Notes under the pieces: generated by a model
Databases searched by the model: none
Told to the model about the DNA's origin: nothing
What the model saw: the letters and a program-made list of their open reading frames with translations, nothing else
Part shown: positions 2,213-25,506 of the stretch, piece after piece
How positions within the stretch are numbered: position 1 is the first letter of the stretch
Layout of the letters: the number at the start of each line of letters is the position of its first letter
Position numbers and translations under genes: made by a program
UHGV virus genome: UHGV-0209617
Strand: one strand, 5' to 3'
Source: a virus
Length of the DNA: 64,000 bases

Positions 2213-2543
2213 ACCACATAATACCAGTGCTATCTTCTCTGAAGTTGTATTAGCACGTTTTGCTTTTGTTTTATGGGTAGCCCCAACAGCAATTAATAGA
2301 GAACTTTTTATACATCCAGTGAGTGAGGCGTTATGCATCTATTTCATATATAGCCAATATTCAAGATAAATATCTACTGCTTCAGCGGCAGATACTTTAG
2401 TTGGTTGTACGGCAATAGAACAGCCAATAAAACTGCAATAGTAAGAAGAAAAATAGTAAAAATTTTTTTCGATGTAATCATCTAAAAAAGTATATTATCT
2501 GTCATTTGGAATACTTATTCATTAGAAGAATGTTTTCAGAAAA

Positions 2544-4326: not shown

Positions 4327-4441
4327 TAAGGAGAGATGTTTTTAAGATAATAAGCTAGTAGGATGTGTAGAATACTATAAAATAGGTTAACGGATACATC
4401 GGTAAATAAAATTAAGGTTATATGTATGGTGGCCAGATGAT

Positions 4442-4740
4442 ATGATAAAAAGAGTATTTTTTACGTTTATCGTGCTGCAGATATTTTTATAGGTCCGTGC
4501 TATGCAAGTTCAGACAGATTAGCAGATATTGGAGCGGAGTTATTTAAAGAAAGAATTGTAGAAGATATACCTTTCAAGGTTGCAGATTTCAAAATAACAA
4601 ATGAAGCGACCGTTGCTAGAGAACAGCCACATATGGCTGGTGACTCTAAATACGAATTTATGGCAGTGCAGAATCAAAATGTAATGCTTATGATTGATGT
4701 TTATGTGAACCGAGAAGGTTACATAGATAGTATTATTAAC
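4442..4740 (+). pseudogene. Frameshifted and 3'-truncated copy of the secreted paralog family (closest to 8061-8633)
   Basis: Near-identical DNA to the 5' part of 8061-8633 but with one T missing in a T-run (5 T vs 6 T), giving a stop after 16 codons; homology ends near 4740 where the 536-aa ORF begins. Confidence 0.7.
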
Positions 4741-4754
4741 TGTGGGGAAAATAT

Positions 4755-6365: not shown

Positions 6366-6519
6366 TGTATTTTTGTTATTCATATCAAAAATAAGAAAAC
6401 ATAGATAATATTTACAGAATATATAGTTTATTAAATGAACTATATAATACGACGCAATTAAAATATGTACTGGGTTGATTAACAATTTTATTTCAAAGTG
6501 ATGATAGGAGTGTTTAAAG

Positions 6520-7197
6520 TTGAGGAGAATATTTTCATATTTTTTAGCATTAATAATCATGTTATCGGCTACCACAGGAATGGCTGCTGATGACAGATGG
6601 GTATGTATAGAAGATGATGGTATAGGTCAATTCTATTTAGATTCCAAGACAACGTCATATGATTCAGCAGCAAATACAGTAAAGTTCTGGGTTAAATACG
6701 AAGAGAATTCCAAAATCGTAAATATGGATTACTATTTGGTGGATATCAGTAACACAAAATATGGTATTATGCGTTCAGCATTTTATCAAAATAAAACATA
6801 TCCGGAGATAAAGAATTATGAAAATGTGGTACCGCAAAATCCGATTTGGCCAGATGATATTATAGAGAAGGCAGCTAACATGGTATGTGATAATAACAAC
6901 GCTAAGCATATGTATCCTAGTGGTGTCGACAGGTGGCATTGGCTGTATTCCACTGAGCAGTGCACATACAATTATGCTCCTGGTATGGTAGTTGTAGATA
7001 AAGAAAAACGCACAGTGACAGTGTGGACGCAATCTGTATACCCGGAGCATGGAATTGGTGGTGTAACACGGTGGGTATGTTATTTTAATGAAAATATGGT
7101 GGAGCACACTAATAGCAGAGGTGTATATAAGCAGTATGTCTTGCCAGATACATTAGAGGAAGCTGTCTGGGAAAAAGCTGAGCCATATATGAAGTAA
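6520..7197 (+). CDS. Secreted hypothetical protein (TTG start, signal peptide)
   Basis: TTG preceded by AGGAG at 9-nt spacing; N-terminus RRIFSYFLALIIMLSATTGMAADD is signal-peptide-like. Confidence 0.55.
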   Translation: MRRIFSYFLALIIMLSATTGMAADDRWVCIEDDGIGQFYLDSKTTSYDSAANTVKFWVKYEENSKIVNMDYYLVDISNTKYGIMRSAFYQNKTYPEIKNYENVVPQNPIWPDDIIEKAANMVCDNNNAKHMYPSGVDRWHWLYSTEQCTYNYAPGMVVVDKEKRTVTVWTQSVYPEHGIGGVTRWVCYFNENMVEHTNSRGVYKQYVLPDTLEEAVWEKAEPYMK

Positions 7198-7392
7198 ATT
7201 ATTTATTTCATATATGGCCTATAGGTTAGAATTAAGGTCTAACTTTTTGAGGTTGGTACAACATAGGGGGAAATCTTTGCTGTCTTATTTTTTGTGCATG
7301 AAATTAGGAATTTATGTGGAATACTATAAAATATGTCAATAGATACATCAGTAAATAAGACTAAGGTTATAAGTATGGGAGGGGACCATAAT

Positions 7393-7959
7393 ATGCTTAA
7401 AAGAATATTCATAATGATTATCGTGTTGCAGGCATTTTTTATAGGGGTATGCTCTGCCAATTCGGGCAGATTAGCAGATATTGGAGCAGAAGTATTTAGA
7501 GGAAAAATGGTGGAGAGTACGAATTCTTTTGTGAGTGGATTAGAAATTAAAAAGCTATCAGGAGGAATGGCAAAGCTATATCCAGGAACAACATTATATA
7601 CATTTTTTATGTTTGATAATTTGAATACAGATAAAGTTGTCAGTGTTTCGGTATTTGTAAATCAAGAAGGTTATATTGATGCTATAGGCGTAGCTGGCTC
7701 AGGAGCAAGTGAAAGCAGTAGAGCGTTTTCGACAAATATTGTGGAAGAGTCTATGAGGGCTATTGGTTTAAGTAATGATGACATTAACTGCTTGACAACT
7801 AAAGGTATACAAGGGAAAAAATATCAAGGGGTAGTTTTTTCTGAAAATATGGGTAGAGACGTTTATTATACATTTTGGATGGGACCTAATGCTGTCCATT
7901 CAAGTATTATAGATAGAATGTCTTATACGAATAGGGGTAATTTGTTTAGAGCAAGTTAG
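7393..7959 (+). CDS. Secreted protein, paralog family member 2
   Basis: MLKRIFIMIIVLQAFFIGVCSANSGRLADIGAEVF...FVNQEGYIDAI...GRDVYY; conserved ~70-nt upstream leader shared with the copy at 3781. Confidence 0.7.
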   Translation: MLKRIFIMIIVLQAFFIGVCSANSGRLADIGAEVFRGKMVESTNSFVSGLEIKKLSGGMAKLYPGTTLYTFFMFDNLNTDKVVSVSVFVNQEGYIDAIGVAGSGASESSRAFSTNIVEESMRAIGLSNDDINCLTTKGIQGKKYQGVVFSENMGRDVYYTFWMGPNAVHSSIIDRMSYTNRGNLFRAS

Positions 7960-8060
7960 TAAAATATACACAAAATGTATGTCACGGCTATGTATAGCTT
8001 AAGGGAGATAGGTATAAAGAAATAAATTTTTGAGTATATTTATGTAAAGGGGAAGATGAT

Positions 8061-8633
8061 ATGATAAAAAGAATATTTTTTACGTTTATCGTGCTGCAGA
8101 TATTTTTTATAGGGCCATGCTATGCAAGTTCAGACAGATTAGCAGATATTGGAGCGGAGTTATTTAAAGAAAGAATTGTAGAAGATATACCTTTTGAGGT
8201 TACAGATTTCAAAATAGCAAATGAAGCGTCCGTTGCTAGAGAACAGCCACATATGGCTTGTGACTCTAAATACGAATTTATGGCAGTGCAGAATCAAAAT
8301 GTAATGCTTATGATTGATGTTTATGTAAACCGAGAAGGTTACATAGATAGTATTATTATATGTGGGCCATCCGTCGAAAAAAGAAATAGCAAGTTTTTAA
8401 CACTCGTATTAGCAGAGTCTATGAAGGCTATAGGATTAAATATGGATGAGATAATGTGGTTATGTTCTAAAGGTTCAATATCAGGAAATACATATGAGGG
8501 GAGTGTTTTTTCTACAGGAATGGGAAGAACTGTCTATTATAGTATGAGTTTAACATCGGATGGCTTTGGTATTAATAGAATCGATAGAATGTCTTTAACA
8601 GATAGGTTTACAAGATCAATGTTAGCTAACTAA
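8061..8633 (+). CDS. Secreted protein, paralog family member 3
   Basis: MIKRIFFTFIVLQIFFIGPCYASSDRLADIGAELF...VYVNREGYIDSI...GRTVYY; SD-like AAAGGGGAAG upstream. Confidence 0.7.
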   Translation: MIKRIFFTFIVLQIFFIGPCYASSDRLADIGAELFKERIVEDIPFEVTDFKIANEASVAREQPHMACDSKYEFMAVQNQNVMLMIDVYVNREGYIDSIIICGPSVEKRNSKFLTLVLAESMKAIGLNMDEIMWLCSKGSISGNTYEGSVFSTGMGRTVYYSMSLTSDGFGINRIDRMSLTDRFTRSMLAN

Positions 8634-8702
8634 GTTTAGATGATTGGCCTTTGGTTTGTGTTTTAGGTTGTTTACTAATAATTTTGCGTGTTAAATGGCA
8701 AT

Positions 8703-8736
8703 AAGGCAGCAGGGAAAATATCCTTGCTGCTTTATT
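8703..8736 (+). terminator. Rho-independent terminator candidate after paralog 3
   Basis: Imperfect hairpin GGCAGCAGGG / CCTTGCTGC followed by a T-rich run. Confidence 0.45.
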
Positions 8737-8988
8737 GTAGACAATTAAACAGAATGGCTAAGGAAAATAGATATTAATTCATTTTTACAGAACGTATGTA
8801 GATATGAGAGGTAGGCAGAAATGAACTTTCTTTTTTATGGGAAATTTGGGATAAATTTGTGTGATTTGCTCCAGTATTTTTCATTTTCATACTTTTTCAA
8901 AGCTTATTATGGTACAATATTATAAATAGATAATGCCTTAACTTATACTTTGAAGTGTTAATTGCTAGCTGAAATGGGTGTGATATAA

Positions 8989-9231
8989 ATGAGCGTTGTA
9001 GTAAAAAAAATAGGTGATATGTCTGTAAAAGTAATCAGTGCAGACGATATTGCTTCAATCCGCCGGGAAATAAGTAGTAGAGATATGGAAATGGATAAAA
9101 GAGCTGTTGTAGCCGTAAATTCAGCTATAAATAGGGCGCAGGTATGTAATAAGCCTATAGCTAAATATGATTTGGCAAGTGGAAGGGCATATTTAGAATA
9201 TGCTGATGGGAGTAGGGATTATGTCAACTAA
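8989..9231 (+). CDS. Hypothetical small protein (80 aa) overlapping the start of the zeta-like kinase pseudogene
   Basis: ORF with an extended -10-like TGgTACAAT upstream; its 3' end overlaps the ATG at 9221 by 11 nt. Confidence 0.5.
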   Translation: MSVVVKKIGDMSVKVISADDIASIRREISSRDMEMDKRAVVAVNSAINRAQVCNKPIAKYDLASGRAYLEYADGSRDYVN

Positions 9232-9773
9232 GAAGCAGATGATATTGGTGTTAGTTGGTTCCAATGGCTCTGGAAAAAGTACTATTACCAAATTCTTTGA
9301 TGTTGTTGGCGAATATACTAATGCTGATGATATTGTAGCAGCCACTGGAATGGATAATCTTGCTGCAGCACGAATGGCTGATGAAAAATGTATTCTGCTA
9401 TAAAAGAAAAACGGGATTTTACCTTTGAAACGGTACTATCTTCAGAGTATAAGTTTGATATATTAAATAAGGCTAAAGCAGAGGGTATTTTATTAAGTGT
9501 GTATTTGTATTGACCGTGAATCCCTACATAAATGTAGCTAGAGTGCAGATGCGTGTAGCTAATGGTGGTCATTTTGTGGAAAAAGATAAGATTTTATCAA
9601 GATACTATAAATCATTGACAAATATAAAGAAACTGTTAGAAATATGTGATATTATGCATGTTTATGATAATACCGTTACCCCAACGCGTATCATACGAAA
9701 GCATAAGGATGATATTTCTACTTTTGCTAGTGAAATATGGAGCGAAGAGCAGATTCTAAAACTTATGTATTAA
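9221..9773 (+). pseudogene. Zeta-toxin-like P-loop kinase gene disrupted by at least two frame changes
   Basis: Walker A LVGSNGSGKST in the first segment, ...RDFTFETVLSSEYKFDILNKAKAEGILLSVYLY in a second frame, ...RVQMRVANGGHFVEKDKILSRYY in a third; stops at 9403 and about 9511. Confidence 0.55.
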
Positions 9774-9815
9774 GATGGTTTATGTGTTTGTATTTGTGTA
9801 AAAATAAGTGAGGAT

Positions 9816-10085
9816 ATGATTTATCCATTTATGACATTGGAAGATGATACAGAAATTACTAATTCTGAAATGCAGGCAAATGGTGAGGTAAAGGTGTATG
9901 TTGAAACACCAGATGAAAAGGATTGTTTCCATAGTATGATATGTTATCTTCCTGATTATCGTGTTGAAAAGGTAGAGGGGTATTCAGAAGAAGTGGAAAA
10001 GTATCTTGATTTTATTCGCAAGGCTGCGAATCTTATCCTTGAATTTTCTCAGGAAGGTGGATTTAACCATGCCAAAGCTGTTTAA
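9816..10085 (+). CDS. Hypothetical protein (89 aa)
   Basis: ORF only; no recognisable motif. Confidence 0.4.
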   Translation: MIYPFMTLEDDTEITNSEMQANGEVKVYVETPDEKDCFHSMICYLPDYRVEKVEGYSEEVEKYLDFIRKAANLILEFSQEGGFNHAKAV

Positions 10086-10380
10086 GATTGGTTGCCTCAT
10101 ATTCCAGATACATTAAGAAACATTATGCGTATTTTTAGCAATGGGGCAGAATAGGGCATAACGGGGCATTTTAGAGCATTTCAGGAAAGGAAAATGGCAT
10201 GAATAAGATTTTGTTTATCTGCCACGGCAGCGTATAAGGATAGAGTCGATAAACCGCATGGCTACGGGACTTTTGCAACGGTTAAATGATATTCATATAC
10301 TGAAAGCATACCGTTTATGCTGGGTCTTGTATATTCTATTGTGAAACGGTTACATTGAATTATTAAACGATACATATACA

Positions 10381-10399
10381 TTAACGATTTAATCGTTAA
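10381..10399. promoter_or_regulatory. Perfect 9-1-9 palindrome TTAACGATT-T-AATCGTTAA (operator-like)
   Basis: Read directly; lies just upstream of a hairpin plus T-run. Confidence 0.4.
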
Positions 10400-10411
10400 A
10401 TAATACCTTTG

Positions 10412-10439
10412 AGACTCCCGGCTGTGCCTGGGAGTTTTT
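10412..10439 (+). terminator. Rho-independent terminator candidate
   Basis: ACTCCC...GGGAGT stem followed by TTTTT. Confidence 0.45.
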
Positions 10440-10488
10440 CAATATAGGAGAAGGCGAATTTACTTCATAGGAAATGTTCTTATAGCTG

Positions 10489-10517
10489 TTGCCGTTGTAC
10501 TATTGACTTGCTATAAT
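10489..10517 (+). promoter_or_regulatory. Sigma-A-type promoter candidate (TTGCCG, 17-bp spacer, extended -10 TGcTATAAT)
   Basis: Hexamer spacing and extended -10 read directly; 49 nt upstream of the ATG at 10566. Confidence 0.5.
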
Positions 10518-10565
10518 TTAATAAATGACAATATTAATTTAATGAAGATACGGAGATTTGAGCAT

Positions 10566-11384
10566 ATGGAAAAGAATCTTGATGAGGCTGTTAAATGGTT
10601 GCGTAAGGCAGCAGAGCTTGGGCATAAGGATGCAATGGTAAAGCTGGGCGAGCTACTCAGTGGTACAGAGGAGCCATTGACAAAACTATTGGAAAAATCA
10701 TATATGGAAGGCTATGCAGATGGCAAAAATGGCAAGGCTAATAAATATTTCAAGGAAGCATATATTAAATCTACTATGGATAGAGCAGGTTTTGTTAATG
10801 TTAAGGTTGGAGATATAATCACATTTGGCAATTATTGGCAGGATAAAGATAAGTCAGCTGGTAAGCAGCCAGTAGAGTGGCAGGTGCTTGATGTCAAGGA
10901 TGGCAAGGCATTAGTTATTAGTAAATATGGTTTAATAAATCATAAATATAATAAAGAATGGACGGATGTTACATGGGAAACATGTACCTTGAGAAAATGG
11001 CTGAATGATACCTTTATTAAGGATATTTTCTCCGCAGAGGAAATGAAGGCTGTTATGTTATCAGATGTTAGTGCAGATAAAAATCCTAATTATAACACAA
11101 ATCAGGGAAATGACACTAAGGATAAATTGTTCCTGCTGAGTATAAAGGAAGTGGAGCAATATTTTGTTAGTGATGAAAAAAGACTGTGTAAGCCAACAGA
11201 ATATGCAGTTAACAACGGAGCTTATGAGAATAACCGTGGGCATAGTTGGTGGTGGCTACGCTCTGCTGGTGGCTATAGTAGCGATGCGGCGTATGTGGTC
11301 AGTTATGGCTGCGTCTACTACAGTGGCCGTAGTGTGTTCAGCGACGATGGTTCTGTGCGCCCAGCTTTTTGGCTAAATCTTTAG
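10566..11384 (+). CDS. Sel1-like repeat plus DUF6273-like domain protein
   Basis: N-terminal DEAVKWLRKAAELGHKDAMVKLGELL is Sel1/TPR-like; C-terminal W-rich block (WQVLDV...WETCTLRKWLN...WWWLRSAGGYS...VRPAFWLNL) is typical of the DUF6273 pattern as I recall it; start chosen at the ATG with a GGAG upstream. Confidence 0.6.
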   Translation: MEKNLDEAVKWLRKAAELGHKDAMVKLGELLSGTEEPLTKLLEKSYMEGYADGKNGKANKYFKEAYIKSTMDRAGFVNVKVGDIITFGNYWQDKDKSAGKQPVEWQVLDVKDGKALVISKYGLINHKYNKEWTDVTWETCTLRKWLNDTFIKDIFSAEEMKAVMLSDVSADKNPNYNTNQGNDTKDKLFLLSIKEVEQYFVSDEKRLCKPTEYAVNNGAYENNRGHSWWWLRSAGGYSSDAAYVVSYGCVYYSGRSVFSDDGSVRPAFWLNL

Positions 11385-11680
11385 TCTAAAATCTTCAAAT
11401 CTATGAATACGATAAGTGAAAAGTAGAAAAATAAAACAGGTAATTTACCTGCGAAGCAGGGGTGAAATTTTTTAGGAGTATAGGCTGTGAAAAAAAGGTT
11501 AGCGAAACTTTTGTAAGCAGATTGCAGAATTTAAGTTTATCAGCCATAGAAAATCTGTATAGAGCCAATGATATATTTGTGCAGCGTGGCAATTTGAGTG
11601 CCTTGGAACTGACAGGCACTTTTAATGATAAATAGTAATGTTAAATAGCTGTATTATAAAGACAGCTAGAAACAATTTTT

Positions 11681-11735
11681 CAGCGGGGTAACATACTCAA
11701 TAGGAAGCAAGAGTATGTTGCTCCGCTGATTTTTT
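11681..11735 (+). terminator. Long hairpin plus T-run (terminator or small-RNA 3' end)
   Basis: CAGCGGGGTAACATACTC / GAGTATGTTGCTCCGCTG, about 15 of 18 bp paired, followed by TTTTTT. Confidence 0.45.
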
Positions 11736-12357
11736 AGTTTAGGTTGAGTATGTAGAACTGCTATTGGCAGGGGTGGGTATGTAGGGACAATGTGGTTCTG
11801 AAATAGTGAACATATCGAAGCTGAAAGGTACGTGGATATTGAGGTTAGGTAGATATGTTCAGTGCGAGCAGGTTGAATAGATATGAAAAGAAAATGCCCC
11901 AGACCGTGGTATTCCACTTCCTACAATAATTCAGTATGGCAGTGCCGTAACCGCTATTCAGCCGTGAAATGCAAGACCATGAATATCTATGACAAGCTGC
12001 TGTTTATGTCCTGCACGATGTGGCAAAGGACATACGGACAGCAATAGTGGAATTCGCAGCAGATGTGGTCAGTGCTGACAGGCTGGCAGCCATTGAACGC
12101 TACATAGAGAACTTTGAAAGCATGAGTGCCTGGAAGATGCTTTCCAATGCAGATGACCTGTAATTCGTGATGAACATGGTTCTGGTCAAAACGGATAGGC
12201 GCATTGAGGTGATATGGTTGGACGGTGGTGTGGATGGATATGAAATTCCGAGGTATACACCGAAGGGGGGATAGAATGATTAGGTGTCTTTTTAGCATTG
12301 TAAAAGTAATTACATTTACAATGCTAAAAAGATGTAGAAAATATTTTGTAATAGGGA

Positions 12358-12386
12358 TTGTAATTACAGCTTAAATATGCTAAAAT
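12358..12386 (+). promoter_or_regulatory. Promoter candidate for the R-M operon (TTGTAA, 17 bp, TAAAAT) overlapped by palindrome TGTAATTACA; second GTAATTAC palindrome at 12306-12313
   Basis: Hexamers and palindromes read directly; the palindrome overlaps the -35. Confidence 0.4.
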
Positions 12387-12631
12387 ATAAGATGAAAGAC
12401 TATATGGAAATGGAGGAACTACAGTTGAGCGAAATGAAAAGAAAAATGCCTATGGAACATTTGAATATTGGTGAGTTCAACCGTGGGCAATCTTCAAAAC
12501 TAATCCGTAACTTGGTGGAAAAAGATAATGCTGCATTTATACAAAAAAATGGGAAGCCAATAGCCGTTGTTATCTCCTATGAACGATACGAGAGACTGCT
12601 TGAGTCTGGCATTGATATCAATGAGTTCTGA
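12377..12631 (+). CDS. Phd/YefM-fold small protein, first gene of the R-M operon (candidate controller); true start may be the in-frame TTG at 12425 or ATG at 12434-12452
   Basis: NIGEFNRGQSSKLIRNLVEKDNAAFIQKNGKPIAVVISYERYERLLE matches the Phd/YefM N-terminal pattern; ends 11 nt before the methyltransferase ORF; no toxin partner follows. Confidence 0.55.
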   Translation: MLKYKMKDYMEMEELQLSEMKRKMPMEHLNIGEFNRGQSSKLIRNLVEKDNAAFIQKNGKPIAVVISYERYERLLESGIDINEF

Positions 12632-12642
12632 GTATTCAAAAC

Positions 12643-14298
12643 ATGATTAAGGAGGTAACGGAGATGGTTGCGAAAAATTATGGTGTTGTTTACACACCGA
12701 ATAGACTGGCTGAGTTCGCAGCAGAACTTTTATATAGAGAGGCAGCAGAAACTAATACAGAAATAAAGTCGGTATTGGATCCTGCGTGTGGCGAATGCGC
12801 ATTGCTATGTGCTGCAAAGAAATATTTGAATGGTAATGTGAAATATTTGGGAATTGATGTCGATAAAGAAGCAATAATGAATGTTGAGGATGATTTTGAA
12901 ATTCTTTATAATGATTCAATTCTTCCGCGAAATGTAAAAAAACAGACGGCAGAATATTGGAAGAGCAAGATGCCAGTAATATCTGCTATAATTGCAAATC
13001 CACCGTGGAGTTCCGAAAAAATATATGTGCGAGAAGAATTGCAGAGTGCCGGTTTCTCGTTGACCACAGGACAATATGATAGCTTTGTGCTATTTATTGA
13101 GTTGGCATATAATCTGCTTGATGATGGAGGATACTTTTCGTTTATTATCCCCGATTCGTTATTTGATGCACAAAACGAAAAACTAAGAAGATTTTTGACT
13201 GAAAAGATGCAAATCAAAGTGATTGCCAGACTTGGAGAGAAGATTTTTGAAGAAGTGAATAGAGCAACTACTGTTATTGTTTGCAGAAAAGAAAAGCCAG
13301 TCAAAGATTCTGTCACCCACTGTTTCAGACTTACTACGGAAGAAAGAAGAAAGTTTTTGAATTCGAATCAGAGTTTGTTAAACTTTTACAACGAAGATGT
13401 GCATGATGTGTTGCAGGGGCGATTTGCTGAAAACGCTGCCTGTAACTTTGACGTTGATACGCGCACTGATGAAGAGGCATTGTTGGCTAAAATTAAGAAG
13501 CAGTCTATAAGTTGGGAGGATATATTCATTTTTGGTCGAGGTGTTGAGATATCCAAAACAGGAAAGGTCGTATTTTGTCCTTCGTGTGGTTATGCCCAAG
13601 GGTATAAAAAATCACAAATGGCTGAAGGAAAAAAAGAATGTACGAACTGTGGCAGTGAGATATCGGTTACTACGGCAAGTGTTCAAAATGTTATTTCACA
13701 AAGTCAAACGCCACAGACTGTTCAGATATATGTTGGAGAGAATGTTCGGAGATATGGAATAACAGGAGAATGCTATATCAAACCCAACATTCCCGGAATC
13801 AATTATAAAAATCGTGCGATGTACAACCCACCAAAACTGTTGGTGAGAAAGACTGGACTTGGAATATATGCATCGATTGATTATACGGGAAGCATGACAA
13901 GTCAGGCTGTATATATTTTGAAATTTAAAAACAGTCAACATAAGGCTCCGTTGGAATATTATCTGGCATTGCTTAACTCACGAGTGGTCTACTATTTTTA
14001 TTTGAAAGTATATGGAGAAAATGAATGGAAGTCCCATCCGTACTTTACGAAACAGATTATTTATTCTCTGCCTATTAGAGAATATGAGGATAGTGAGTTA
14101 GATAAACAGATCATTAAAGTGGCATCGGAATTGGCGCATAAATATGAATATGTCAAGGATGTTCAGCTTGAGAAGTTGGTAATGAAAAAGTATGGTCTGT
14201 CAGAGACCGAAAGCAATATGGTTTATGGTGAGATGAATCGTCTGCCTGACTTGAGTGCGATTAACAATATGAAAGTTGAGGTGGAAGCGAATGTATAG
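12643..14298 (+). CDS. N6-adenine DNA methyltransferase, gamma-class order (motif I then NPPW), with zinc ribbon and C-terminal recognition domain; probable start ATG at 12664
   Basis: VLDPACGECALL (motif I-like), IIANPPWS (motif IV), CPSCG...CTNCG zinc ribbon; AAGGAGGT 8 nt before the ATG at 12664. Confidence 0.85.
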   Translation: MIKEVTEMVAKNYGVVYTPNRLAEFAAELLYREAAETNTEIKSVLDPACGECALLCAAKKYLNGNVKYLGIDVDKEAIMNVEDDFEILYNDSILPRNVKKQTAEYWKSKMPVISAIIANPPWSSEKIYVREELQSAGFSLTTGQYDSFVLFIELAYNLLDDGGYFSFIIPDSLFDAQNEKLRRFLTEKMQIKVIARLGEKIFEEVNRATTVIVCRKEKPVKDSVTHCFRLTTEERRKFLNSNQSLLNFYNEDVHDVLQGRFAENAACNFDVDTRTDEEALLAKIKKQSISWEDIFIFGRGVEISKTGKVVFCPSCGYAQGYKKSQMAEGKKECTNCGSEISVTTASVQNVISQSQTPQTVQIYVGENVRRYGITGECYIKPNIPGINYKNRAMYNPPKLLVRKTGLGIYASIDYTGSMTSQAVYILKFKNSQHKAPLEYYLALLNSRVVYYFYLKVYGENEWKSHPYFTKQIIYSLPIREYEDSELDKQIIKVASELAHKYEYVKDVQLEKLVMKKYGLSETESNMVYGEMNRLPDLSAINNMKVEVEANV

Positions 14299-15349
14299 AT
14301 ATATAGGAAACAAATCAAAGCTGACTCCATACATTCTTGATAGGGTGGAACAGCTTATTGGAAAAACAGGAATTGTTGCTGACATTATGGCTGGAACAGG
14401 AACTGTGGCATTAGAATTGAGAAAAGCAGGTTATTCGGTTATCGCATCTGATGTAATGACCTATTCGTACCATCATTTGATGGTTAATCTTTGCTTAGAT
14501 TCAGCTCCTTCTTTTTCTGGGCTTGTGAATCATGGAGCAATAGGCAAGAATGAGGTGGATGCATATGGTGCAATCCTGACTTATTTAAATTGCATTGAAC
14601 CCAAAGAAGGTTTTTTCTTCAAGGAATTTTCTCCGGGTGGAACACCGCAGAATGGTTGCGACCCGAGAAAATATTTCACTACGGAAAATGCAAAGAAAAT
14701 TGATGCGATTAGAGAAAAAATAAATGAGTGGATTGATAATGGATATGTGAGCAAAGCTGAAGAATCGCTTTTAAAACATACTCTTATTATGGCAGTAAAC
14801 GAGGTTGCCAATATATCTGGAACTTACGGATATTTTTTGGCTGATTTCAAAAAGAATGCCAATGCACAGATTGATTTAAAACCTGTGGAATTTTGTTCTG
14901 TGAATTCAACTGGTCACATGGTAAAATTGGGATTTGCTGAAAATTTAGCTGCAACAATTACAGTTGATTTGTGCTACATCGACCCTCCGTATATGAAGAG
15001 ACAGTATGCTGCGAATTATCATATTCTGGAAACCATTGCACGAGGAGATTTCCCTGATGCTGTTGGTAAAAGTGGCTTGCGTGACTGGTGGGAGCAGCAC
15101 TCTAAATTGTGTACCAAAACACGAGGATTACAATCGTTTGAAAAGATATTAGGTGATATGCATTGCCCGAAATTTCTGATTAGCTACAGTGAGGATGGTT
15201 TGTTTACGCTGGGGCAATTAGAAGAATGTTTTAGCAAGTTTGGAACTGTTGACGTTCAAGAAATTGATTACAATCGATTTAGAAGCAATGATAGCAAGTT
15301 GCCTAAAAAACTGAAGGAATATTTGATTTCTATAGAAAGGCAGGTATAA
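14291..15349 (+). CDS. D12-class (Dam-like, alpha-order) N6-adenine DNA methyltransferase
   Basis: RYIGNKSKL N-terminal motif, ADIMAGTGTV (motif I), CYIDPPYM (motif IV); ATG overlaps the upstream stop (ATGTATAG). Confidence 0.85.
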   Translation: MYRYIGNKSKLTPYILDRVEQLIGKTGIVADIMAGTGTVALELRKAGYSVIASDVMTYSYHHLMVNLCLDSAPSFSGLVNHGAIGKNEVDAYGAILTYLNCIEPKEGFFFKEFSPGGTPQNGCDPRKYFTTENAKKIDAIREKINEWIDNGYVSKAEESLLKHTLIMAVNEVANISGTYGYFLADFKKNANAQIDLKPVEFCSVNSTGHMVKLGFAENLAATITVDLCYIDPPYMKRQYAANYHILETIARGDFPDAVGKSGLRDWWEQHSKLCTKTRGLQSFEKILGDMHCPKFLISYSEDGLFTLGQLEECFSKFGTVDVQEIDYNRFRSNDSKLPKKLKEYLISIERQV

Positions 15350-15353
15350 GTGA

Positions 15354-17024
15354 ATGGAGTGCATTGAAAGAATATTTTACAGAAAGATTAATCCTTCTGA
15401 TTTCAAAAAGTTGTATGATATTGACAAACCAGAAGGTGGCGGTGGTCAGACATACTTGGAAGCCGCTGGTATTTCAAATGAAAAAATCGTTGATTTCCTT
15501 TCCTATGCGGAGGTTACAAACAGTCCTTTGCCAGATGAAACAAGGTCTGTTTATACATTCAATGCCTATGTTTTGGGCGATTCAAAGGGTAAATGTTCGT
15601 TTGTAGAATTTGCACCTCGCAAAGGAAGAAATAACTATCGTATAAGCCGTCAGAACATGAAATATAAACATCCGGCATGGAGTTTGGATAATGGATTTCC
15701 CGAACCATCAAAAGGTGATGATGGCGAATACACATCTGCAGGCGATTTTGTGGGAATCATTGATAATCTTGTTATTCTTATCATAAGAACTACAAATCGG
15801 CGTTATTATGCAGGTTTTGTAAATATAGCGACAATGCCAGAGAACTGGCCACACAATATTGGCTTAGAGGGCATTTTTAGTGGTGAACGCAGAGATGTAC
15901 TAAAAATGGATGCGTATAAACTACAGTTTGTTAATGATGCCTGTAATCCATTCGGTGATTATGTCCCAACAATCGAAGAATGTAATCGAGCGACTACTGG
16001 TTGCAATGTGCTTTTGTACGGAGTTCCCGGAGCAGGAAAGAGTTGGACAATTGAACACGAATATTGTGCCGATGAAGGGTGTATGGAGCGATTGGTTTTC
16101 CATCCGGATTATATGTATTCGGATTTCGTTGGACAAATTTTGCCTGTAGTAAGGGACGATGACAAGGTTCGTTATGAGTTTACGCCGGGTCCGTTTACCA
16201 AATTATTAAAAAAAGCATATTGGAATACAGAACAGTCTTTTTACCTTATAATAGAAGAAATAAATCGTGGTAATGCACCAGCGATATTCGGTGAAATATT
16301 TCAGCTTTTGGATAGAAAAGATGAAGACGAAATAGATGAAAATAGGGAGATTCTCTACAAAAAAGGCACAAGTGAGTATGGAATAACAAATGCCAATATT
16401 GCACGAATCGTTTATGGCGATGAAAACCATAAGGTTCGAATTCCTGCAAATATGTCTATTTTGGGTACAATGAATACTTCTGACCAAAATGTTTTTACAT
16501 TAGACACAGCATTTCAGAGAAGATGGATTATGAGAATGATTCCGAATTCATTTGATAACCATAAGTTCGCAGACAAGAAGATTTTGGATACTGATATTTC
16601 CTGGAGACAGTTCTGTGAAGCAATTAATGAGGAAATTTTGCGTAGAAACAACATCACATCTTCTGAGGATAAGCGACTTGGGGCATATTTTATCTCGGCT
16701 TCGGATTTGGAGATGAAACCAATCACAGACGGGATGAGCGAAAAAGAAAAAATCCAAGTGGAGCATAGCAACAGCAGATTTGCAGAAAAAGTATTGAAAT
16801 ATTTATGGGATGATGCTTTCAAATTTTCCCATCAAGATACATTTAACACAAGACAGTTTGGTAGTCTTGAAAAAGTTATCGAAGGCTTTATGAATCCTGC
16901 CAAGCCTAAAAATGAGCGTTTTCGTGTATTCAATGAGAACCTTCGTAAAATGATTTTGGATGGAGTAACAGCAGAATCAAACGAGGTTTCTGATGATGAC
17001 AGCGAAGGCTCACAGGAATCTTAA
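15354..17024 (+). CDS. McrB-like AAA+ GTPase restriction subunit with an N-terminal domain of about 200 aa that I cannot assign
   Basis: LLYGVPGAGKSW (Walker A), LIIEEINRGNAPAIFGEIFQLLDR (McrB-type IDEINRAN-like motif), ILGTMNTSDQN (NTxD-type motif). Confidence 0.85.
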   Translation: MECIERIFYRKINPSDFKKLYDIDKPEGGGGQTYLEAAGISNEKIVDFLSYAEVTNSPLPDETRSVYTFNAYVLGDSKGKCSFVEFAPRKGRNNYRISRQNMKYKHPAWSLDNGFPEPSKGDDGEYTSAGDFVGIIDNLVILIIRTTNRRYYAGFVNIATMPENWPHNIGLEGIFSGERRDVLKMDAYKLQFVNDACNPFGDYVPTIEECNRATTGCNVLLYGVPGAGKSWTIEHEYCADEGCMERLVFHPDYMYSDFVGQILPVVRDDDKVRYEFTPGPFTKLLKKAYWNTEQSFYLIIEEINRGNAPAIFGEIFQLLDRKDEDEIDENREILYKKGTSEYGITNANIARIVYGDENHKVRIPANMSILGTMNTSDQNVFTLDTAFQRRWIMRMIPNSFDNHKFADKKILDTDISWRQFCEAINEEILRRNNITSSEDKRLGAYFISASDLEMKPITDGMSEKEKIQVEHSNSRFAEKVLKYLWDDAFKFSHQDTFNTRQFGSLEKVIEGFMNPAKPKNERFRVFNENLRKMILDGVTAESNEVSDDDSEGSQES

Positions 17025-17040
17025 AGCGAGGTGAGCGACA

Positions 17041-18321
17041 TTGGATTTAGGCTTAAACTTAAAAGTTAAATGTCATGTGAATAAAAATGGTGATGGCGAT
17101 AGGTTTGTCGGGATTAAGGCTGATGCTAATCAAGCAATGGTCTATTTTCCAATGGGGTATCGCCTGCCAGACAATGAAGAAGATATTAGGGATGATATTC
17201 TAAAATTGATTTCTGTATTAGCTGAGTTTACGGATTCAAAAGACAAGGTATTGGCTATGCAGAAATTTGAAGCACCACAGTCTGTGAATTTTCCAATCAA
17301 TGCCTATATGAATATTATCCGATACTATTTGGAACAACGTTCATATTACACAGAAAAGGATCCTATTCTAAAGACGAGTGACAGAGGAAAAATCGACTTT
17401 GCAGCATCTTTGCGTAGAAATGTTAGCTTTTTTCAAGAAGATGGAACTCCGTTTTTTGATAAATATACAGTAAAAGGGTCAACTCCTAATGATAAAAATT
17501 TAATAACTATGATTCACAAATACTGTGTGCATGAAAGTTTTGCTCAGATGGGTTGGCTGTTTATGCCGGATGTCCCACAAGATCCACATATTGAACGAAA
17601 CATTCCGCTTTTCCTCAGTGTACTGAAGAAAAAATTGGCAGTCACGCATCTTGAAAAGGATATTCTGCTATTTGAAGCAATGATTTCTATGCTGGAATAT
17701 TTGGATGAGAAAAGTGACGATAAACAATACTATTTTGGAACAGATAGATTTGAATATGTGTGGGAAAAACTGATAGATGCAGTGTTTGGCATAAAAGAAA
17801 AGAATGATTATTTTCCACGAACCTCTTGGAAACTAAACTATGGTGACCAACGAAGAAATTATGCATTAGAGCCGGACACCATAATGCTTTGTAATGGAAA
17901 AATCTATGTCATTGATGCAAAGTATTATAGATACGGTGTAACCGGTACACCTTCGCATTTGCCGGAATCATCATCTATCAACAAGCAGATTACATATGGT
18001 GAGTACATATATAATCATAAGAAATTTAAGGATGTATATGGTGATGATGTTCCTGTGTATAACGCATTCCTTATGCCGTATAACAAACAGGATAATCCAT
18101 TTCATATCAATGAGTATTTCGCCAATATTGGTGAGGCTGATAGTGACTGGAAATATGGCAATCATAATTATGAACGGGTGCAAGGAATTGTAGTTGATAT
18201 TCGTTTCTTGATGAACAATTACTATGGTTCGCACAAGAGTAAAATTATTAAGATGGCGAAGCTCATCGAGGAAGCCCTGCAGGAAAATGCAGATACGCTT
18301 CCAGAAGAAAAGACTGAATAA
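17041..18321 (+). CDS. McrC-like PD-(D/E)xK nuclease subunit (TTG start)
   Basis: ALEPDTIMLCNGKIYVIDAKYY gives PD...D-x-K; position immediately after the McrB-like gene; GAGGTGA 7 nt before the TTG. Confidence 0.75.
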   Translation: MDLGLNLKVKCHVNKNGDGDRFVGIKADANQAMVYFPMGYRLPDNEEDIRDDILKLISVLAEFTDSKDKVLAMQKFEAPQSVNFPINAYMNIIRYYLEQRSYYTEKDPILKTSDRGKIDFAASLRRNVSFFQEDGTPFFDKYTVKGSTPNDKNLITMIHKYCVHESFAQMGWLFMPDVPQDPHIERNIPLFLSVLKKKLAVTHLEKDILLFEAMISMLEYLDEKSDDKQYYFGTDRFEYVWEKLIDAVFGIKEKNDYFPRTSWKLNYGDQRRNYALEPDTIMLCNGKIYVIDAKYYRYGVTGTPSHLPESSSINKQITYGEYIYNHKKFKDVYGDDVPVYNAFLMPYNKQDNPFHINEYFANIGEADSDWKYGNHNYERVQGIVVDIRFLMNNYYGSHKSKIIKMAKLIEEALQENADTLPEEKTE

Positions 18322-18362
18322 AAAATCCGCAAGCAGTGATTATGCTGTTTGCGGATTTTTTA
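18321..18362. terminator. Bidirectional rho-independent terminator between the R-M operon and the convergent CGNR gene
   Basis: A-run, ATCCGCAAGCAG / CTGTTTGCGGAT stem, then TTTTTT. Confidence 0.65.
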
Positions 18363-19544
18363 TTTGCCCTTTTGAACTTTGATGCGATGGGAACGTTGAT
18401 TATTTGCGTTTCTACAGTTACTGCAACAATATTTATTTCTACTATTGGATGTCTTTACTAAGAAATATTTATGGCAAGAAGGATTGGCACACTTTCTATA
18501 TATTTCAGATCCGGGTTTCATGTAGAAAATAGAAAAATATAATGCAGAAAGCAATGATGGTGCCTTCCACGACGGTTCCAGTGAATTGGGACTGTAGAAA
18601 GGTTTTATACTTCTGGTATTATGATTTATTTCCCCACTTAAAACGAGTCGTGCGATAAGAGTAGCAGCCTCTTTTAATGGACTGTTAAATTTGCTGAAAT
18701 CTGGACTACTATAGTATTCAATGCCGCCCTCGAAAGTTACAGCTTTTATTACACCAACAGAATGCATATAGTGAAACAGGAATTCAACCATTAGTCGGAG
18801 CTTCTTGGATTGAATATTGTTATTCTTGTAAGCAATAGTAACCTGGCGATACAGCGTATCATTAATTCCAGGATAATCGTATGTAAATGTTTCTCCGTTT
18901 GAAATATCATCATATTCATCAGCATTTAATTCATATGAAGGAGCATAAATCATGTCTTTTACGGTAATAGATTCTGTTTCAGAGGATTGCTGTAGTGAAT
19001 CGATAGAGGCTTGATTTCTGATGCTATCATGAAATGGATGCCGATAGGTTGAATAAGTAATTCGTGCAGTGCCATTAAGCGTAACTTGTGTCCCAAGAAG
19101 CAAATACAAAGTTAAATGTAGAATCTGTTCATAATCAAGTGATGGTTTTTCCACTGCGGCCATAAGGAGAACTGTAGCCTTTATTCGATTCAAGACTTCT
19201 ACAAGCGCTACTATATCAATTTCCGTTCCTTCGGGCGAAATAGGAAGTAGATAACCATGTTCCTCGAAAAAACCAAGGACCTTTTTTACATTGGTTGCCG
19301 GAAGCGATATCAGAGAACCGAGAACATTTTTATTTTGAAGTGAACCGTGTGGAGTCGTTAAACATAAACCTCGGCTTCCGCTAAAGGCATAATTTATAAT
19401 TTCATCATTCACGGGATAGACTGTTAATATTTTATGCGCCTGCCCGTCCGTCTTTAAGACTTCTTCTATTCTAAATGTACATTTTTTGCAACTCAAAGAA
19501 AAATAATCGTTGCTAAGATTGAAAAAATTGTCTAACTCAGTCAT
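18360..19544 (-). CDS. Protein with C-terminal CGNR-type zinc finger; N-terminal ~340 aa unassigned
   Basis: C-terminus CANPSCHKYFLVKTSNSRNKYCCSNCRNANNQRSHRIK fits the CGNR zinc-finger pattern (C-x2-C ... C-x2-C-R). Confidence 0.65.
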   Translation of the reverse strand: MTELDNFFNLSNDYFSLSCKKCTFRIEEVLKTDGQAHKILTVYPVNDEIINYAFSGSRGLCLTTPHGSLQNKNVLGSLISLPATNVKKVLGFFEEHGYLLPISPEGTEIDIVALVEVLNRIKATVLLMAAVEKPSLDYEQILHLTLYLLLGTQVTLNGTARITYSTYRHPFHDSIRNQASIDSLQQSSETESITVKDMIYAPSYELNADEYDDISNGETFTYDYPGINDTLYRQVTIAYKNNNIQSKKLRLMVEFLFHYMHSVGVIKAVTFEGGIEYYSSPDFSKFNSPLKEAATLIARLVLSGEINHNTRSIKPFYSPNSLEPSWKAPSLLSALYFSIFYMKPGSEIYRKCANPSCHKYFLVKTSNSRNKYCCSNCRNANNQRSHRIKVQKGK

Positions 19545-19978
19545 AAAAAACTACTCCATATTTCCTTGCCCCTCGTAGAAGGGTCTTTTTTTATGTCGAA
19601 AAGTAAGTGATTACATAAGTAATAATGTAATTATAACGCTTACTATTGCTTGTTTCAAGCTAGTATAGTAATGAAATACACAGAAAGTAAGTGATTATAT
19701 CAGAAATTTACTTACTATACTGAAATTCTTATACTTAAAGACAGTGAAGGACAACCAAACTTTATATACAGCGGAGGTGTTTTTCACATCCCTGTTTCAA
19801 TGTTCATCGCCTGATCAGCGATGCCCAGAGCGGAGAAACGGACACAAGTAAATATCAGTCAACCCACTGGGACGGTTGGCCAGCTAAGAAATGAGGATTT
19901 CATTCTTATGGCCAATTATTATGGGAAGTTCAGTGTGGGTCCTCATTTCGGTTTTCAGACCGAAGGAGGGTCTACACG

Positions 19979-20488
19979 ATGGACAAATTTGAAAATCTAC
20001 AGACAAGCAACGAGAAGCAGTATTACATTCCTTTGGAAGTAACCGCAGAAACTATCAGAGATTTTGGCATCAACCCTAAAGATGTGGTATGGACGAGAAT
20101 CGGGAACAAGCCTAAAAAGGTTGTTATGATTCCCGTAACCGAGGAGCAGTACAAAACATTTATGCGTCCTCTGTGGCGTGAGGACAAGCGTCAGCAAAGA
20201 CAGGAGCCGATGGCATCGCTGGATAAGATGTACGAAAAAACCGAGTACGAAGCGGCTGATACCGACTCTGACCTTGAAGCGAATATTATGAAGAAAATGC
20301 TGATTGATGAGCTTCACAAGGCACTGGATGAACTGGAAGAAATCGACCGCACCATTATGAAGATGTACAGCAATAACCATAGCGAAGCCGAAATCGGACA
20401 GACTATCGGTATGAGCCAGAAGGGTGTTAATAAACGTAAGCACAAGGTGCTGCTGAAACTTAACACCAGATTGAAAGACTTCAGATAA
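19979..20488 (+). CDS. Sigma-70 region-4-like HTH protein (putative phage transcription factor)
   Basis: C-terminal EIGQTIGMSQKGVNKRKHKVLLKL HTH; GAAGGAGGG SD. Confidence 0.65.
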   Translation: MDKFENLQTSNEKQYYIPLEVTAETIRDFGINPKDVVWTRIGNKPKKVVMIPVTEEQYKTFMRPLWREDKRQQRQEPMASLDKMYEKTEYEAADTDSDLEANIMKKMLIDELHKALDELEEIDRTIMKMYSNNHSEAEIGQTIGMSQKGVNKRKHKVLLKLNTRLKDFR

Positions 20489-23127: not shown

Positions 23128-25119
23128 ATGGGAAAAATACAAACATTGTCCTTGGACTTGGAGACTTATTCTGATGTGGATTTGCAGAAGTGCGGGGTCT
23201 ATAAATATGCCCAGTCTCCTAATTTTGAAATTCTGCTATTTGGTGTATCCGTAAATGGCGGTGCGGTTGTGGTCTATGACCTGGCACAGGGCGATACCGT
23301 GCCGATTGAAATTATCAAAGCACTGACCGATGAAACCGTAACCAAATGGGCATATAATGCGGCTTTCGAGAGAATCTGTTTGTCAGTGTGGCTGCAGAGA
23401 AACTACCCGGAATATTTTTGCAGTTACAGCATCAATGAGGATACTGTCGGGGATTATCTGGATCCTTCTGCCTGGAAATGCTCCATGATATGGGCGGCAT
23501 ACATGGGACTGCCGTTATCCCTTGCGGGAGCCGGCACGGTGTTGGGATTGGAGGAACAGAAACTCAAGGAGGGCAAAGACCTTATAAGGTATTTCTGTGT
23601 TCCCTGCAAGCCGACCAAAGTGAACGGCGGCAGGACACGCAATCTGCCGGAGCATGATATGGAGAAATGGAATACCTTCGTTTTATATAACAAGCGAGAT
23701 GTGGAAGTGGAGACGTCCATACAGGACAAACTAAAAAAATTCCCTGTGCCGGATTTTGTGTGGGATGAGTACCACCTCGACCAGGAAATCAACGACCGTG
23801 GGATTGCTCTTGATATGGCGGTAGTGGAGAATGCCATTGCTTTTGATGCAAAATCCAAGGCGGAACTGGCAGAGAAAATGCAGGAACTGACTGACCTTGA
23901 TAACCCAAACTCCGTGGTACAGATGAAGCAGTGGCTATTGGATAACGGTTTGGAGATGGACAGCCTTGGAAAAAAGAAAGTAGCACAGGCGATAAAAACT
24001 GCTCCGAAGGAACTGGCGGAGGTTCTGCAGCTGCGACAACAATTATCCAAGTCCTCCGTAAAAAAGTATCAGGCAATGCAGAATGCTGTCTGTGAGGATG
24101 GCAGAGCCAGAGGGATGTTTCAGTTTTACGGGGCAAACAGAAGCGGCAGATGGGCAGGCAGAATGATACAGCTGCAAAATCTGCCTCAGAACCATATGCC
24201 GGATTTGGAACAGGCACGAGGACTGGTGAAGTCTGGTAATTACGCAGCGATGGAACTCTTATATGATGATATCCCCGATACTCTATCGCAGCTTATCCGC
24301 ACTGCCTTTGTGCCGAGACCGGGTATGAAATTTGTCGTGGCGGACTTCTCGGCAATTGAAGCAAGGGTGCTGTCGCATCTTGCAAAAGAAAACTGGCGAA
24401 CAGAAGTCTTTGCAAATAACAGGGATATTTATTGTGCATCGGCATCAGCCATGTTCGGTGTTCCTGTGGAAAAACATGGTGTCAACGGAAACCTCCGTCA
24501 AAAGGGCAAAATTGCTGAATTGGCTCTGGGCTACGGCGGTTCAGTCGGTGCTTTGAAAGCAATGGGTGCCATTGATATGGGACTTTCCGAAGAGGAATTA
24601 CAGCCACTGGTGGATTCTTGGAGAGCCGCCAACCCTAACATTGTGAAGTTCTGGTGGGAGGTTGACCGATGTGTCAAGGAAACTGTGAAAAAGAGAGTGC
24701 CGACCGAAACGCATGGCATCCGTTTTATCTATCAGAGCGGGATGCTTTTTATCAAGCTCCCTTCCGGCAGACAGCTTTCCTATGTGAAGCCTCGCATGGG
24801 AGAAAACCGTTTTGGCGGTGAGTCCGTAACCTATGAAGGTGTCGGAGGTACAAAGAAATGGGAACGCATCGAAAGTTATGGTCCAAAGTTTGTGGAAAAT
24901 ATCGTGCAGGCAATCAGCAGGGACATTTTGGCGCATTCCATGAGAACCTTGTCGCACTGCTTTATCTGCGGTCATGTGCATGATGAATTGATTATTGAGT
25001 GTAGTATGGGAGTTTCCCTTGATGCCGTGTGTGAACAGATGGGCAGGACTCCGGCCTGGATACCGGGTCTGCTTCTCCGTGCAGATGGGTACGAATGCAG
25101 CTTCTATAAAAAAGATTAA
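23128..25119 (+). CDS. Family A DNA polymerase (phage type, with 3'-5' exonuclease domain)
   Basis: LSLDLETYS (exo I), DFSAIEARV (motif A), RQKGKIAELALGYGG (motif B), VHDELIIE (motif C). Confidence 0.9.
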   Translation: MGKIQTLSLDLETYSDVDLQKCGVYKYAQSPNFEILLFGVSVNGGAVVVYDLAQGDTVPIEIIKALTDETVTKWAYNAAFERICLSVWLQRNYPEYFCSYSINEDTVGDYLDPSAWKCSMIWAAYMGLPLSLAGAGTVLGLEEQKLKEGKDLIRYFCVPCKPTKVNGGRTRNLPEHDMEKWNTFVLYNKRDVEVETSIQDKLKKFPVPDFVWDEYHLDQEINDRGIALDMAVVENAIAFDAKSKAELAEKMQELTDLDNPNSVVQMKQWLLDNGLEMDSLGKKKVAQAIKTAPKELAEVLQLRQQLSKSSVKKYQAMQNAVCEDGRARGMFQFYGANRSGRWAGRMIQLQNLPQNHMPDLEQARGLVKSGNYAAMELLYDDIPDTLSQLIRTAFVPRPGMKFVVADFSAIEARVLSHLAKENWRTEVFANNRDIYCASASAMFGVPVEKHGVNGNLRQKGKIAELALGYGGSVGALKAMGAIDMGLSEEELQPLVDSWRAANPNIVKFWWEVDRCVKETVKKRVPTETHGIRFIYQSGMLFIKLPSGRQLSYVKPRMGENRFGGESVTYEGVGGTKKWERIESYGPKFVENIVQAISRDILAHSMRTLSHCFICGHVHDELIIECSMGVSLDAVCEQMGRTPAWIPGLLLRADGYECSFYKKD

Positions 25120-25157: not shown

Positions 25158-25506
25158 TGAAAGTCCAATCGGTTTGAGCATCTGTGAGAGGCTTGATTGG
25201 TTCTGTCAAATCCCAAAATGCAAGGAGAGCCGGATTTCTCTGACTCTCTCAAGTATGTATCCTTGAATACATACCCCAATTAGTGTCCATATTATACAGC
25301 TTCCGTTCGAAATATGCAAGACCTAAATGAAATTTTTCAAGGCAGACATTCGTGCTGATAAATCCGGATGAATGACGATTGCTGCTACTGCGGGATTGAC
25401 GGATATTTTATAGTCATCTGTGATTTTCTCAAATTCTCGAATGAAGGCCTTTATTTCGGTTTTGGCATATGTAGCAATTTTAAGAGCAAAAAAAGATTAA
25501 AAATAC

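Follow-up and report, generated by a model that had tools for sequence, protein, structure and literature searches.

A predicted LlaJI-family restriction-modification operon with two adenine methyltransferases, carried as prophage cargo in gut Firmicutes

The stretch of the UHGV virus genome UHGV-0209617 analysed here (64,000 nucleotides (nt), hereafter the window) carries an operon at 12300-18362 that we read as a classical, methylation-blocked restriction-modification (R-M) system of the LlaJI family, one that a temperate phage of gut Firmicutes carries as cargo at its lysogeny end; judging from sequence comparison, we put the probability of this reading at about 0.8. The operon encodes, in order, a small Phd/YefM-type protein (gene 1), two methyltransferases (M1 and M2), an McrB-like GTPase subunit (R1) and an McrC-like nuclease subunit (R2), and a zinc-finger gene converges on it from the other side (Table 1). 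The system is not categorically new, because its family has already been characterised genetically, in LlaJI and in LlaI, which uses N6-methyladenine (m6A), and is named by NCBI and PADLOC models. It is a variant of that family, with adenine instead of cytosine methyltransferases, a new family of B3-like reader domain, a Phd/YefM-type protein in the controller slot, a zinc-finger neighbour and carriage on a prophage.

The operon had been described, from the letters of the DNA, as five tightly packed open reading frames (ORFs) with gaps of 11, -8, 4 and 16 nt, and this layout was recovered from the ORF list of the window, where gene 1 spans 12377-12631 on the + strand and the four enzyme genes lie as in Table 1. 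All four gaps are reproduced with the starts as listed, but the first may be 32 nt instead of 11, since M1 probably starts at ATG 12664, which is preceded by GGAGG (12651-12655) and is the gene-caller start on the identical contig L001 (544 amino acids (aa)). The ATG of M2 at 14291 sits within a listed TTG ORF, 14276-15349. The proposed bidirectional terminator was also borne out: a hairpin of 22 base pairs (bp) at 18316-18365 is stable on the + strand (-29.6 kcal/mol, z -9.2) and on the - strand (-22.2 kcal/mol, z -8.0), with a U-run 3' of the stem on each. We assign it as a bidirectional terminator because of the strong fold and U-run on both strands; a simple consensus scan missed it. The left boundary at 12300 is right as well, because homology to an Enterococcus locus (L005) begins at about 12303. 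Gene order is identical in at least five diverged lineages, and the arrangement is therefore not one of chance ORFs. A megablast search of the 6-kb region against plasmid and phage collections gave no match, so the searches were made at the protein level. Profile hidden Markov model (HMM) searches, suggested as a check in the original prediction, recovered all of the proposed families, that of gene 1 (Phd/YefM) weakly.

The two restriction subunits tie the operon to LlaJI, for which the operon of Lactococcus lactis plasmid pNP40 (NC_010901.1; O'Driscoll et al. 2004-2006) served as reference. R2 matches PF09563 RE_LlaJI (2.1e-28, 100 bits against a gathering threshold (GA) of 23.6), PADLOC PDLC03549 (1.6e-138) and PHROG 16589 restriction endonuclease (1.6e-72), carries the PD...D-x-K motif attributed to it and shares 50% of its residues with LlaJI.R2 in a full-length alignment (412 aa); no relative was found among PDB sequences. 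R1 matches AAA_5, the NCBIfam McrB equivalog and solved McrB structures, and the motifs expected of an McrB-like GTPase can be read directly: the Walker A motif GVPGAGKS at aa 223, IIEEINR, the EINR motif, at aa 301 and NTSD, the NTxD motif, at aa 374. Its match to PADLOC REase_II PDLC03547 (1e-117) is confined to aa 211-542, and aa 212-534 are 57% identical to LlaJI.R1. In their N-terminal halves, on the other hand, the two R1 proteins show no sequence similarity in pairwise comparison, and the N-terminal half of R1.LlaJI is itself unique and sets specificity (PMC1459862).

The likeness to Lactococcus LlaJI noted earlier thus holds for R1 and R2 (57% and 50% identity) but not for the methyltransferases, which in LlaJI are two 5-methylcytosine (5mC) enzymes (PMC1459862) not homologous to M1 or M2. 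For the same reason the earlier remark on M1 as unexpectedly large for LlaJI compares unrelated proteins. That M1 and M2 belong to different classes was upheld by HMM searches and motifs. M1 is a gamma-class enzyme, with matches to N6_Mtase PF02384 (2.6e-20), Eco57I PF07669 (1.1e-16), TaqI_C PF12950 (5.1e-14) and PADLOC MTase_II; its DPACG lies at aa 46, NPPW at aa 119 and the cysteine pairs CPSC...CTNC of a zinc ribbon at aa 312/333, and its nearest PDB relatives are M.BseCI, BsaXI and M.TaqI. M2 is of the D12 class (MethyltransfD12 PF02086, 3.3e-27; PADLOC MTase_II PDLC03257, 5e-67), with GTG at aa 35, DPPY at aa 231 and no relative among PDB sequences.

The N-terminal ~200 aa of R1 had been left unassigned, and are now predicted to form a B3-like DNA-binding pseudobarrel. 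Structure prediction, also proposed at the time, gave an AlphaFold2 model, for which 51 family members were used, with a mean predicted local distance difference test score (pLDDT) of 95.6 and a predicted template modelling score (pTM) of 0.91. In fold comparison this model scored 7.5 with the C-terminal recognition domain of BfiI, 7.1 with the B3 domain of UbaLAI, 6.9 with both FUS3 B3 and the N-domain of Helicobacter pylori LlaJI.R1 (6c5d), 5.9 with NgoAVII B3 and 5.6 with EcoRII-N. The domain has no Pfam model, a profile search of PDB sequences found no relative, and Pfam matches to DUF3578, YTH, EVE or SRA in R1 aa 1-210 were likewise not found. A HMMER scan with aa 1-209 defined a family of 118 cluster representatives which, as identified by fold comparison of the model, is a new sequence family in a known fold. 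It is 10% identical to one known structural counterpart and longer (~205 aa here vs ~120 aa). The B3-like domains of such restriction enzymes read unmodified specific sequences (PMC3973309, PMC5766183, PMC4267654), and according to reviews it is with a B3 domain that LlaJI recognises its site, which is asymmetric and unmodified (PMC7680126, PMC12707154). BfiI, UbaLAI, NgoAVII/CglI and EcoRII differ from the system described here in their nucleases, which are of the phospholipase D or PD-(D/E)xK type, and do not have the pair of gamma and D12 adenine methyltransferases (PMC3973309, PMC5766183, PMC4267654, PMC5737866).

What links this domain to M1 and M2 is its genomic company. Among 61 members scanned, the N-domain is fused to McrB AAA+ in 36, to NOV_C PD-(D/E)xK in 17 and to HNH in 8. 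Fusions with NOV_C (loci L010-L012; 47, 58 and 41% identity to the M1, M2 and N-domain of the window), with HNH (L013-L016; 43, 60 and 51%) and with a distant McrB (L017-L020; in L017 32 and 48% for M1 and M2, and 36% for the whole of R1) all lie directly behind M1 and M2 homologues. Co-inheritance of the N-domain with the two methyltransferases, whatever the nuclease, looks like the pattern of a specificity module in a classical R-M system.

Known systems share parts of this arrangement. The pNP40 operon has two 'DNA cytosine methyltransferase' genes, an AAA ATPase of 585 aa and a 'LlaJI family restriction endonuclease' of 414 aa, and so resembles the window in its single operon of methyltransferase, methyltransferase, R1 and R2 and in the divergence of its R1 N-domain; it differs in its 5mC methyltransferases (465 and 379 aa, against the gamma and D12 m6A enzymes), in having no small regulator gene and in being borne on a plasmid instead of a prophage. 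O'Driscoll in 2005 is said to have described LlaJI as regulated by promoter methylation. LlaI of pTR2030 (O'Sullivan et al. 1995; cited in PMC1459862 and PMC7680126) combines adenine methylation with an McrB-like ATPase and a LlaJI-family nuclease. Unlike the operon of the window, it spreads restriction over three genes, its McrB being short (337 aa) and its specificity residing in a protein apart, and its AAA+ part is ~33% identical to that of R1. The LlaI operon is headed by a small regulator gene, llaIC, and its methyltransferase is a single FokI-like fused enzyme. A LlaI-related locus (L028) contains DNA adenine methylase fragments, an AAA ATPase and a LlaJI-family endonuclease. Streptococcus phage phi1207.3 (AY657002; spyIM, Orf13-15) and its relatives carry LlaJI-type R1 and R2 on a phage, followed by a convergent zinc-finger homologue (Orf15, 'DNA binding zinc finger domain protein', 28% identical to that of the window, E 1e-29); they differ in having one divergently transcribed 5mC methyltransferase, no YefM-like gene and another R1 N-domain, the match being limited to aa 204-532. 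In Clostridium beijerinckii (L025, 9289-15430) the restriction module is split as in LlaI and BsuMI, into a 248-aa protein, a 406-aa AAA_5 protein and a LlaJI-type R2, with an HTH_17 protein and two beta-class N6_N4 methyltransferases before it and a convergent zinc-finger gene after it. A CoCoNuT census of McrBC systems does not mention LlaJI.

The original prediction confined the system to five genes and left out a sixth, conserved beside them, which converges on R2 and encodes a putative CGNR zinc-finger protein. In every context checked, including the window and the identical loci L001-L004, this gene lies next to a LlaJI-type R2 and converges on it: in Enterococcus, in a serine-recombinase group with an R1 69% identical to that of the window, in C. 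botulinum, C. beijerinckii and Bacillus, and in two more metagenomic lineages. Among 50,697 phage records it occurs eight times, seven of them beside R2 and the eighth at the end of a record, and among 72,556 plasmids four times, always beside a LlaJI R2 on conjugative plasmids of Lactiplantibacillus (L.) plantarum, where the homologue is a truncated form of 189 aa. The block of R1(AAA+), R2 and zinc-finger gene is constant across these loci while regulators and methyltransferase sets vary, the latter comprising gamma and D12 m6A enzymes, gamma m6A with 5mC, a fused 5mC enzyme, two beta-class N6_N4 enzymes or a single 5mC enzyme. The zinc-finger gene may be an accessory or regulatory partner of R1 and R2.

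A strong competitor to this partnership, to which we give somewhat less than even odds, is that the zinc-finger gene has nothing to do with restriction and is a backbone gene, lysogenic or regulatory, of a phage lineage with a cargo slot for LlaJI-type systems. Nearly all of its contexts are prophages with PolA-type replication modules; it diverges faster (40-81% protein identity across lineages vs 52-90% for the R-M genes); it is transcribed apart, from a strong promoter-like site of its own (19630-19658, - strand, near-consensus TTGAAA-17-TATAAT, 11 of 12 positions matching); and the type LlaJI on pNP40 does without it. Yet it stays by R2 across tyrosine or serine integrases, across replication modules of the DUF2800/Enc34 or SNF2/primase kind, and across varied methyltransferase sets and regulators. 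The only plasmids with the gene are the four of L. plantarum, each with a LlaJI R2 beside it, and no instance without R2 was found in the contexts checked, seven of the eight in phage records being next to it. The idea that the gene tracks an RNA motif, DUF2800 RNA, instead of R2 was rejected, because that motif occurs only in the window and in L005, its closest relative, and is absent from six other zinc-finger loci.

At the other end of the operon, the promoter region carries two copies of the palindrome GTAATTAC (12306-12313 and 12360-12367), with centres 54 bp apart. The first, box 1, sits in the middle of a 46-bp palindrome (12287-12332), and the second lies in box 2, TGTAATTACA (12359-12368), which overlaps the -35 element TTGTAA (12358-12363); a TG-extended -10, TAAAAT (12381-12386), follows after a 17-nt spacer. 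The listed ORF of gene 1, 84 aa from ATG 12377, would contain this -10, whereas a conserved GGAGG (12412-12416) precedes a TTG at 12425 that lines up with the annotated starts in three other lineages; with this start, the product has 68 aa. Both boxes, the -10, the ribosome-binding site and the TTG start are kept in five lineages with R1 identity of 64-87%, although box 2 is degenerate in C. botulinum. The protein matches TIGR01552 (24.5 bits, above the cut-off of 20.8) and PHROG 2268 antitoxin (1.9e-6), and hhalign places aa 26-59 in register with aa 16-49 of Escherichia coli YefM (E 0.002). Profile scans gave Phd/YefM-type matches only, with none to a helix-turn-helix (HTH) family. In Pfam it matches profile positions 10-50 of 74, and because only eight residues then remain to the C-terminus, the toxin-binding tail is absent. 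There is no adjacent toxin gene in five lineages, the next gene always being M1. With 77-82% identity in four lineages, against 52-90% for the enzymes, it is the best-conserved protein of the cassette. In sister systems the slot at the head of the operon is filled by an HTH_3, HTH_17 or HTH_26 protein. Since it is located behind conserved GTAATTAC palindromes, one of which overlaps the -35, the gene 1 product is probably the transcriptional controller of the operon, a C-protein-like autoregulator on another fold. Like gene 1, the C proteins of type II systems (reviewed in PMC3874152) are small, encoded first in their operons and served by palindromic boxes over the promoter, but they are of the Xre-type HTH class, whereas the matches of this putative regulator are of the Phd/YefM type. 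A literature search found no description of such a Phd/YefM-type R-M controller.

As the classical R-M system that we favour, the operon would be transcribed from the conserved sigma-70-type promoter (-35 at 12358, -10 at 12381), the anatomy of which is plain, as far as the hairpin at 18316-18365. The 68-aa product would bind the two GTAATTAC palindromes and autoregulate the operon, in the role that HTH C proteins have elsewhere. R1 would read the unmethylated site through its predicted B3-like N-domain, in a methylation-sensitive manner. On the model of McrBC and LlaJI, it would assemble into a GTP-driven AAA+ ring and recruit R2, the PD...DAK centre of which would cut the DNA. The zinc-finger gene, inherited together with this R1(AAA+)-R2 engine, would probably modulate it. 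Specificity module (regulator, methyltransferases and R1 N-domain) and cleavage engine can each be exchanged without the other.

Several points weigh against parts of this proposal. The division of labour in which M1 and M2 would each N6-methylate adenine on one strand of one asymmetric site is a step that we infer. The pNP40 LlaJI system has no zinc-finger neighbour, so the gene is not essential to the LlaJI family. Enrichment of the TGTAATTACA pattern was dropped as support for an operator, as it is not enriched across the window (6 matches vs 3.2 expected), and cross-lineage conservation is what carries the operator claim. The Phd/YefM matches of gene 1 are consistent but weak, and that to PF02604 (1.7e-6, 28.1 bits) is under the GA of 29.8. 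The hhalign probability of the alignment to YefM is just 13%, and the YefM-like profile found no match among PDB sequences.

A bolder version of our reading gives LlaJI-type systems on phages and plasmids three layers, and makes the CGNR/ABATE zinc-finger protein an obligate partner of R1 and R2, for example as a switch or inhibitor that licenses restriction in lysogeny as against induction, and the truncated Phd/YefM-fold protein an establishment timer that replaces the HTH C-protein. We regard this version as rather improbable; if true, it would give the first R-M controller drawn from an antitoxin fold and an unrecognised third component of McrBC-like restriction. Less probable again is that gene 1 is no controller at all and represents either an orphan antitoxin in decay, the toxin of the pair having been lost, or an antidote that acts at the protein level and inhibits R1 and R2 directly. 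Its sole family matches are indeed to antitoxin families, and R-M systems act as addiction modules (PMC3874152). Its top conservation with retention of ribosome-binding site and TTG argues against decay, however, and the protein has lost the very C-terminal segment by which Phd/YefM antitoxins bind toxins, is accompanied by a toxin gene in no locus of the five lineages, is replaced by small HTH regulators in sister systems and follows a promoter overlapped by conserved palindromes. Finally, the matches of R1 to the McrB equivalog and solved McrB structures, the presence of the N-domain on single-chain HNH and NOV_C nucleases (an architecture frequent in type IV enzymes) and an SRA domain on one N-domain family member might suggest that R1 and R2 form a type IV, modification-dependent McrBC-like enzyme beside unrelated orphan methyltransferases or a separate system upstream, but we consider this very improbable, because the predicted N-domain fold is B3-like, a fold that reads unmodified specific sites, and not a DUF3578, YTH, EVE or SRA modified-base reader, every HNH, NOV_C and McrB version examined is right behind the same two methyltransferase homologues, the genes are tightly spaced or overlapping with one terminator, and R1 and R2 are close to LlaJI, which restricts unmethylated DNA (PMC1459862).

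The favoured R-M cassette is cargo of a prophage. From 20 kb on the window is phage, with a sigma-like protein, a DUF2800 nuclease, an Enc34 single-stranded DNA-binding protein, PolA and large structural ORFs, and related loci have the cassette flanked by an integrase or serine recombinase on one side and by phage early or replication genes on the other. Its GC content is 0.36-0.39, against 0.46-0.50 in the phage body. R1 homologues occur in Ruminococcus callidus (94% identity) and Enterococcus sp. PF1-24 (87%), where the sources name them 'McrB family protein'.

Table 1 Features of the cassette in the window
Feature	Position	Strand	Basis or remarks
Promoter/operator region	12287..12386	+	Consensus scan, repeat search, pattern search
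68-aa Phd/YefM-type protein (gene 1)	12425..12631	+	Pfam, TIGR, PHROG, hhalign; N-terminal DNA-binding/dimerisation part only
M1, gamma-class N6-adenine methyltransferase	12643..14298	+	DPACG, NPPW, CxxC...CxxC zinc ribbon, TaqI_C target-recognition domain
M2, D12-class (alpha) N6-adenine methyltransferase	14291..15349	+	GTG and DPPY; overlaps M1 by 8 nt
R1	15354..17024	+	Predicted B3-like pseudobarrel aa 1-~205 (nt 15354-15968) and McrB-type AAA+ GTPase aa ~212-534
R2, LlaJI-family McrC-like PD-(D/E)xK nuclease subunit	17041..18321	+	PF09563; motifs PD278...D292-A-K294
Terminator, bidirectional intrinsic	18316..18365	both	Common to R2 and the convergent zinc-finger gene
Putative CGNR zinc-finger/ABATE-like protein, 394 aa	18360..19544	-	Convergent with R2

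Other features of the surrounding DNA were recorded. Between the zinc-finger gene and the sigma-like early gene lies a full-length match to Rfam RF02960 'DUF2800 RNA' (19792-19945, + strand, 81.8 bits), also seen in the Enterococcus locus L005 (12441-12593) and missing from six other related loci. A copy of the TGTAATTACA box with one mismatch (19626-19635) overlaps the -10 of the zinc-finger promoter, possibly by coincidence. Rfam RF03085 'abiF RNA' (25164-25200, - strand, 43.3 bits against a gathering score of 37) was found just 3' of the PolA-like ORF (23128-25119). On the other side the cassette belongs to a low-GC island (3000-20000; GC 0.29-0.39 vs 0.46-0.50 in the phage body), which includes a DUF6273 protein (10503-11384) and an apparently frameshifted pair of P-loop ORFs (9200-9403 and 9510-9773); island ORFs 3763-4326, 4755-6365, 6520-7197, 7333-7959 and 8061-8633 have no Pfam match. 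Left of the island, a 163-aa ORF (1721-2212, + strand) matches positions 2-107 of the 321 of Phage_portal (1.6e-40), a truncated portal fragment that suggests a second, decayed phage remnant. The ~900 bp directly upstream of the cassette (11385-12290) are ORF-poor and common only to the identical contig L001; the short protein-like ORFs there (12020-12163 and 12167-12274) may be gene remnants, and a 103-aa ORF abutting the palindrome (11987-12298, - strand) was taken as spurious from its Cys/His-rich, non-protein-like composition. In the loci with 69% identical R1 (L007-L009, ~2000-4550) the serine recombinase adjoins a truncated hsdM of 196-203 aa (HsdM_N and N6_Mtase), with hsdR upstream of it in L007, which suggests that these prophages integrate into and disrupt a host type I R-M gene.

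In summary, one specificity module, made up of gamma and D12 methyltransferases and a predicted B3-like reader, plugs into McrB/McrC, HNH or NOV_C nucleases, and one McrB/McrC engine takes at least five methyltransferase sets, a natural experiment on the recombination of specificity and cleavage modules in R-M systems. The Phd/YefM-type controller, if confirmed, would widen the repertoire of R-M regulators, and McrBC-like enzymes have in the zinc-finger neighbour a candidate for an accessory factor. Prophages of human-gut Firmicutes, among them Ruminococcus callidus, Enterococcus and Clostridium, commonly carry the system, which therefore likely matters for the transfer of phages and plasmids in these bacteria and for their genetic tractability.

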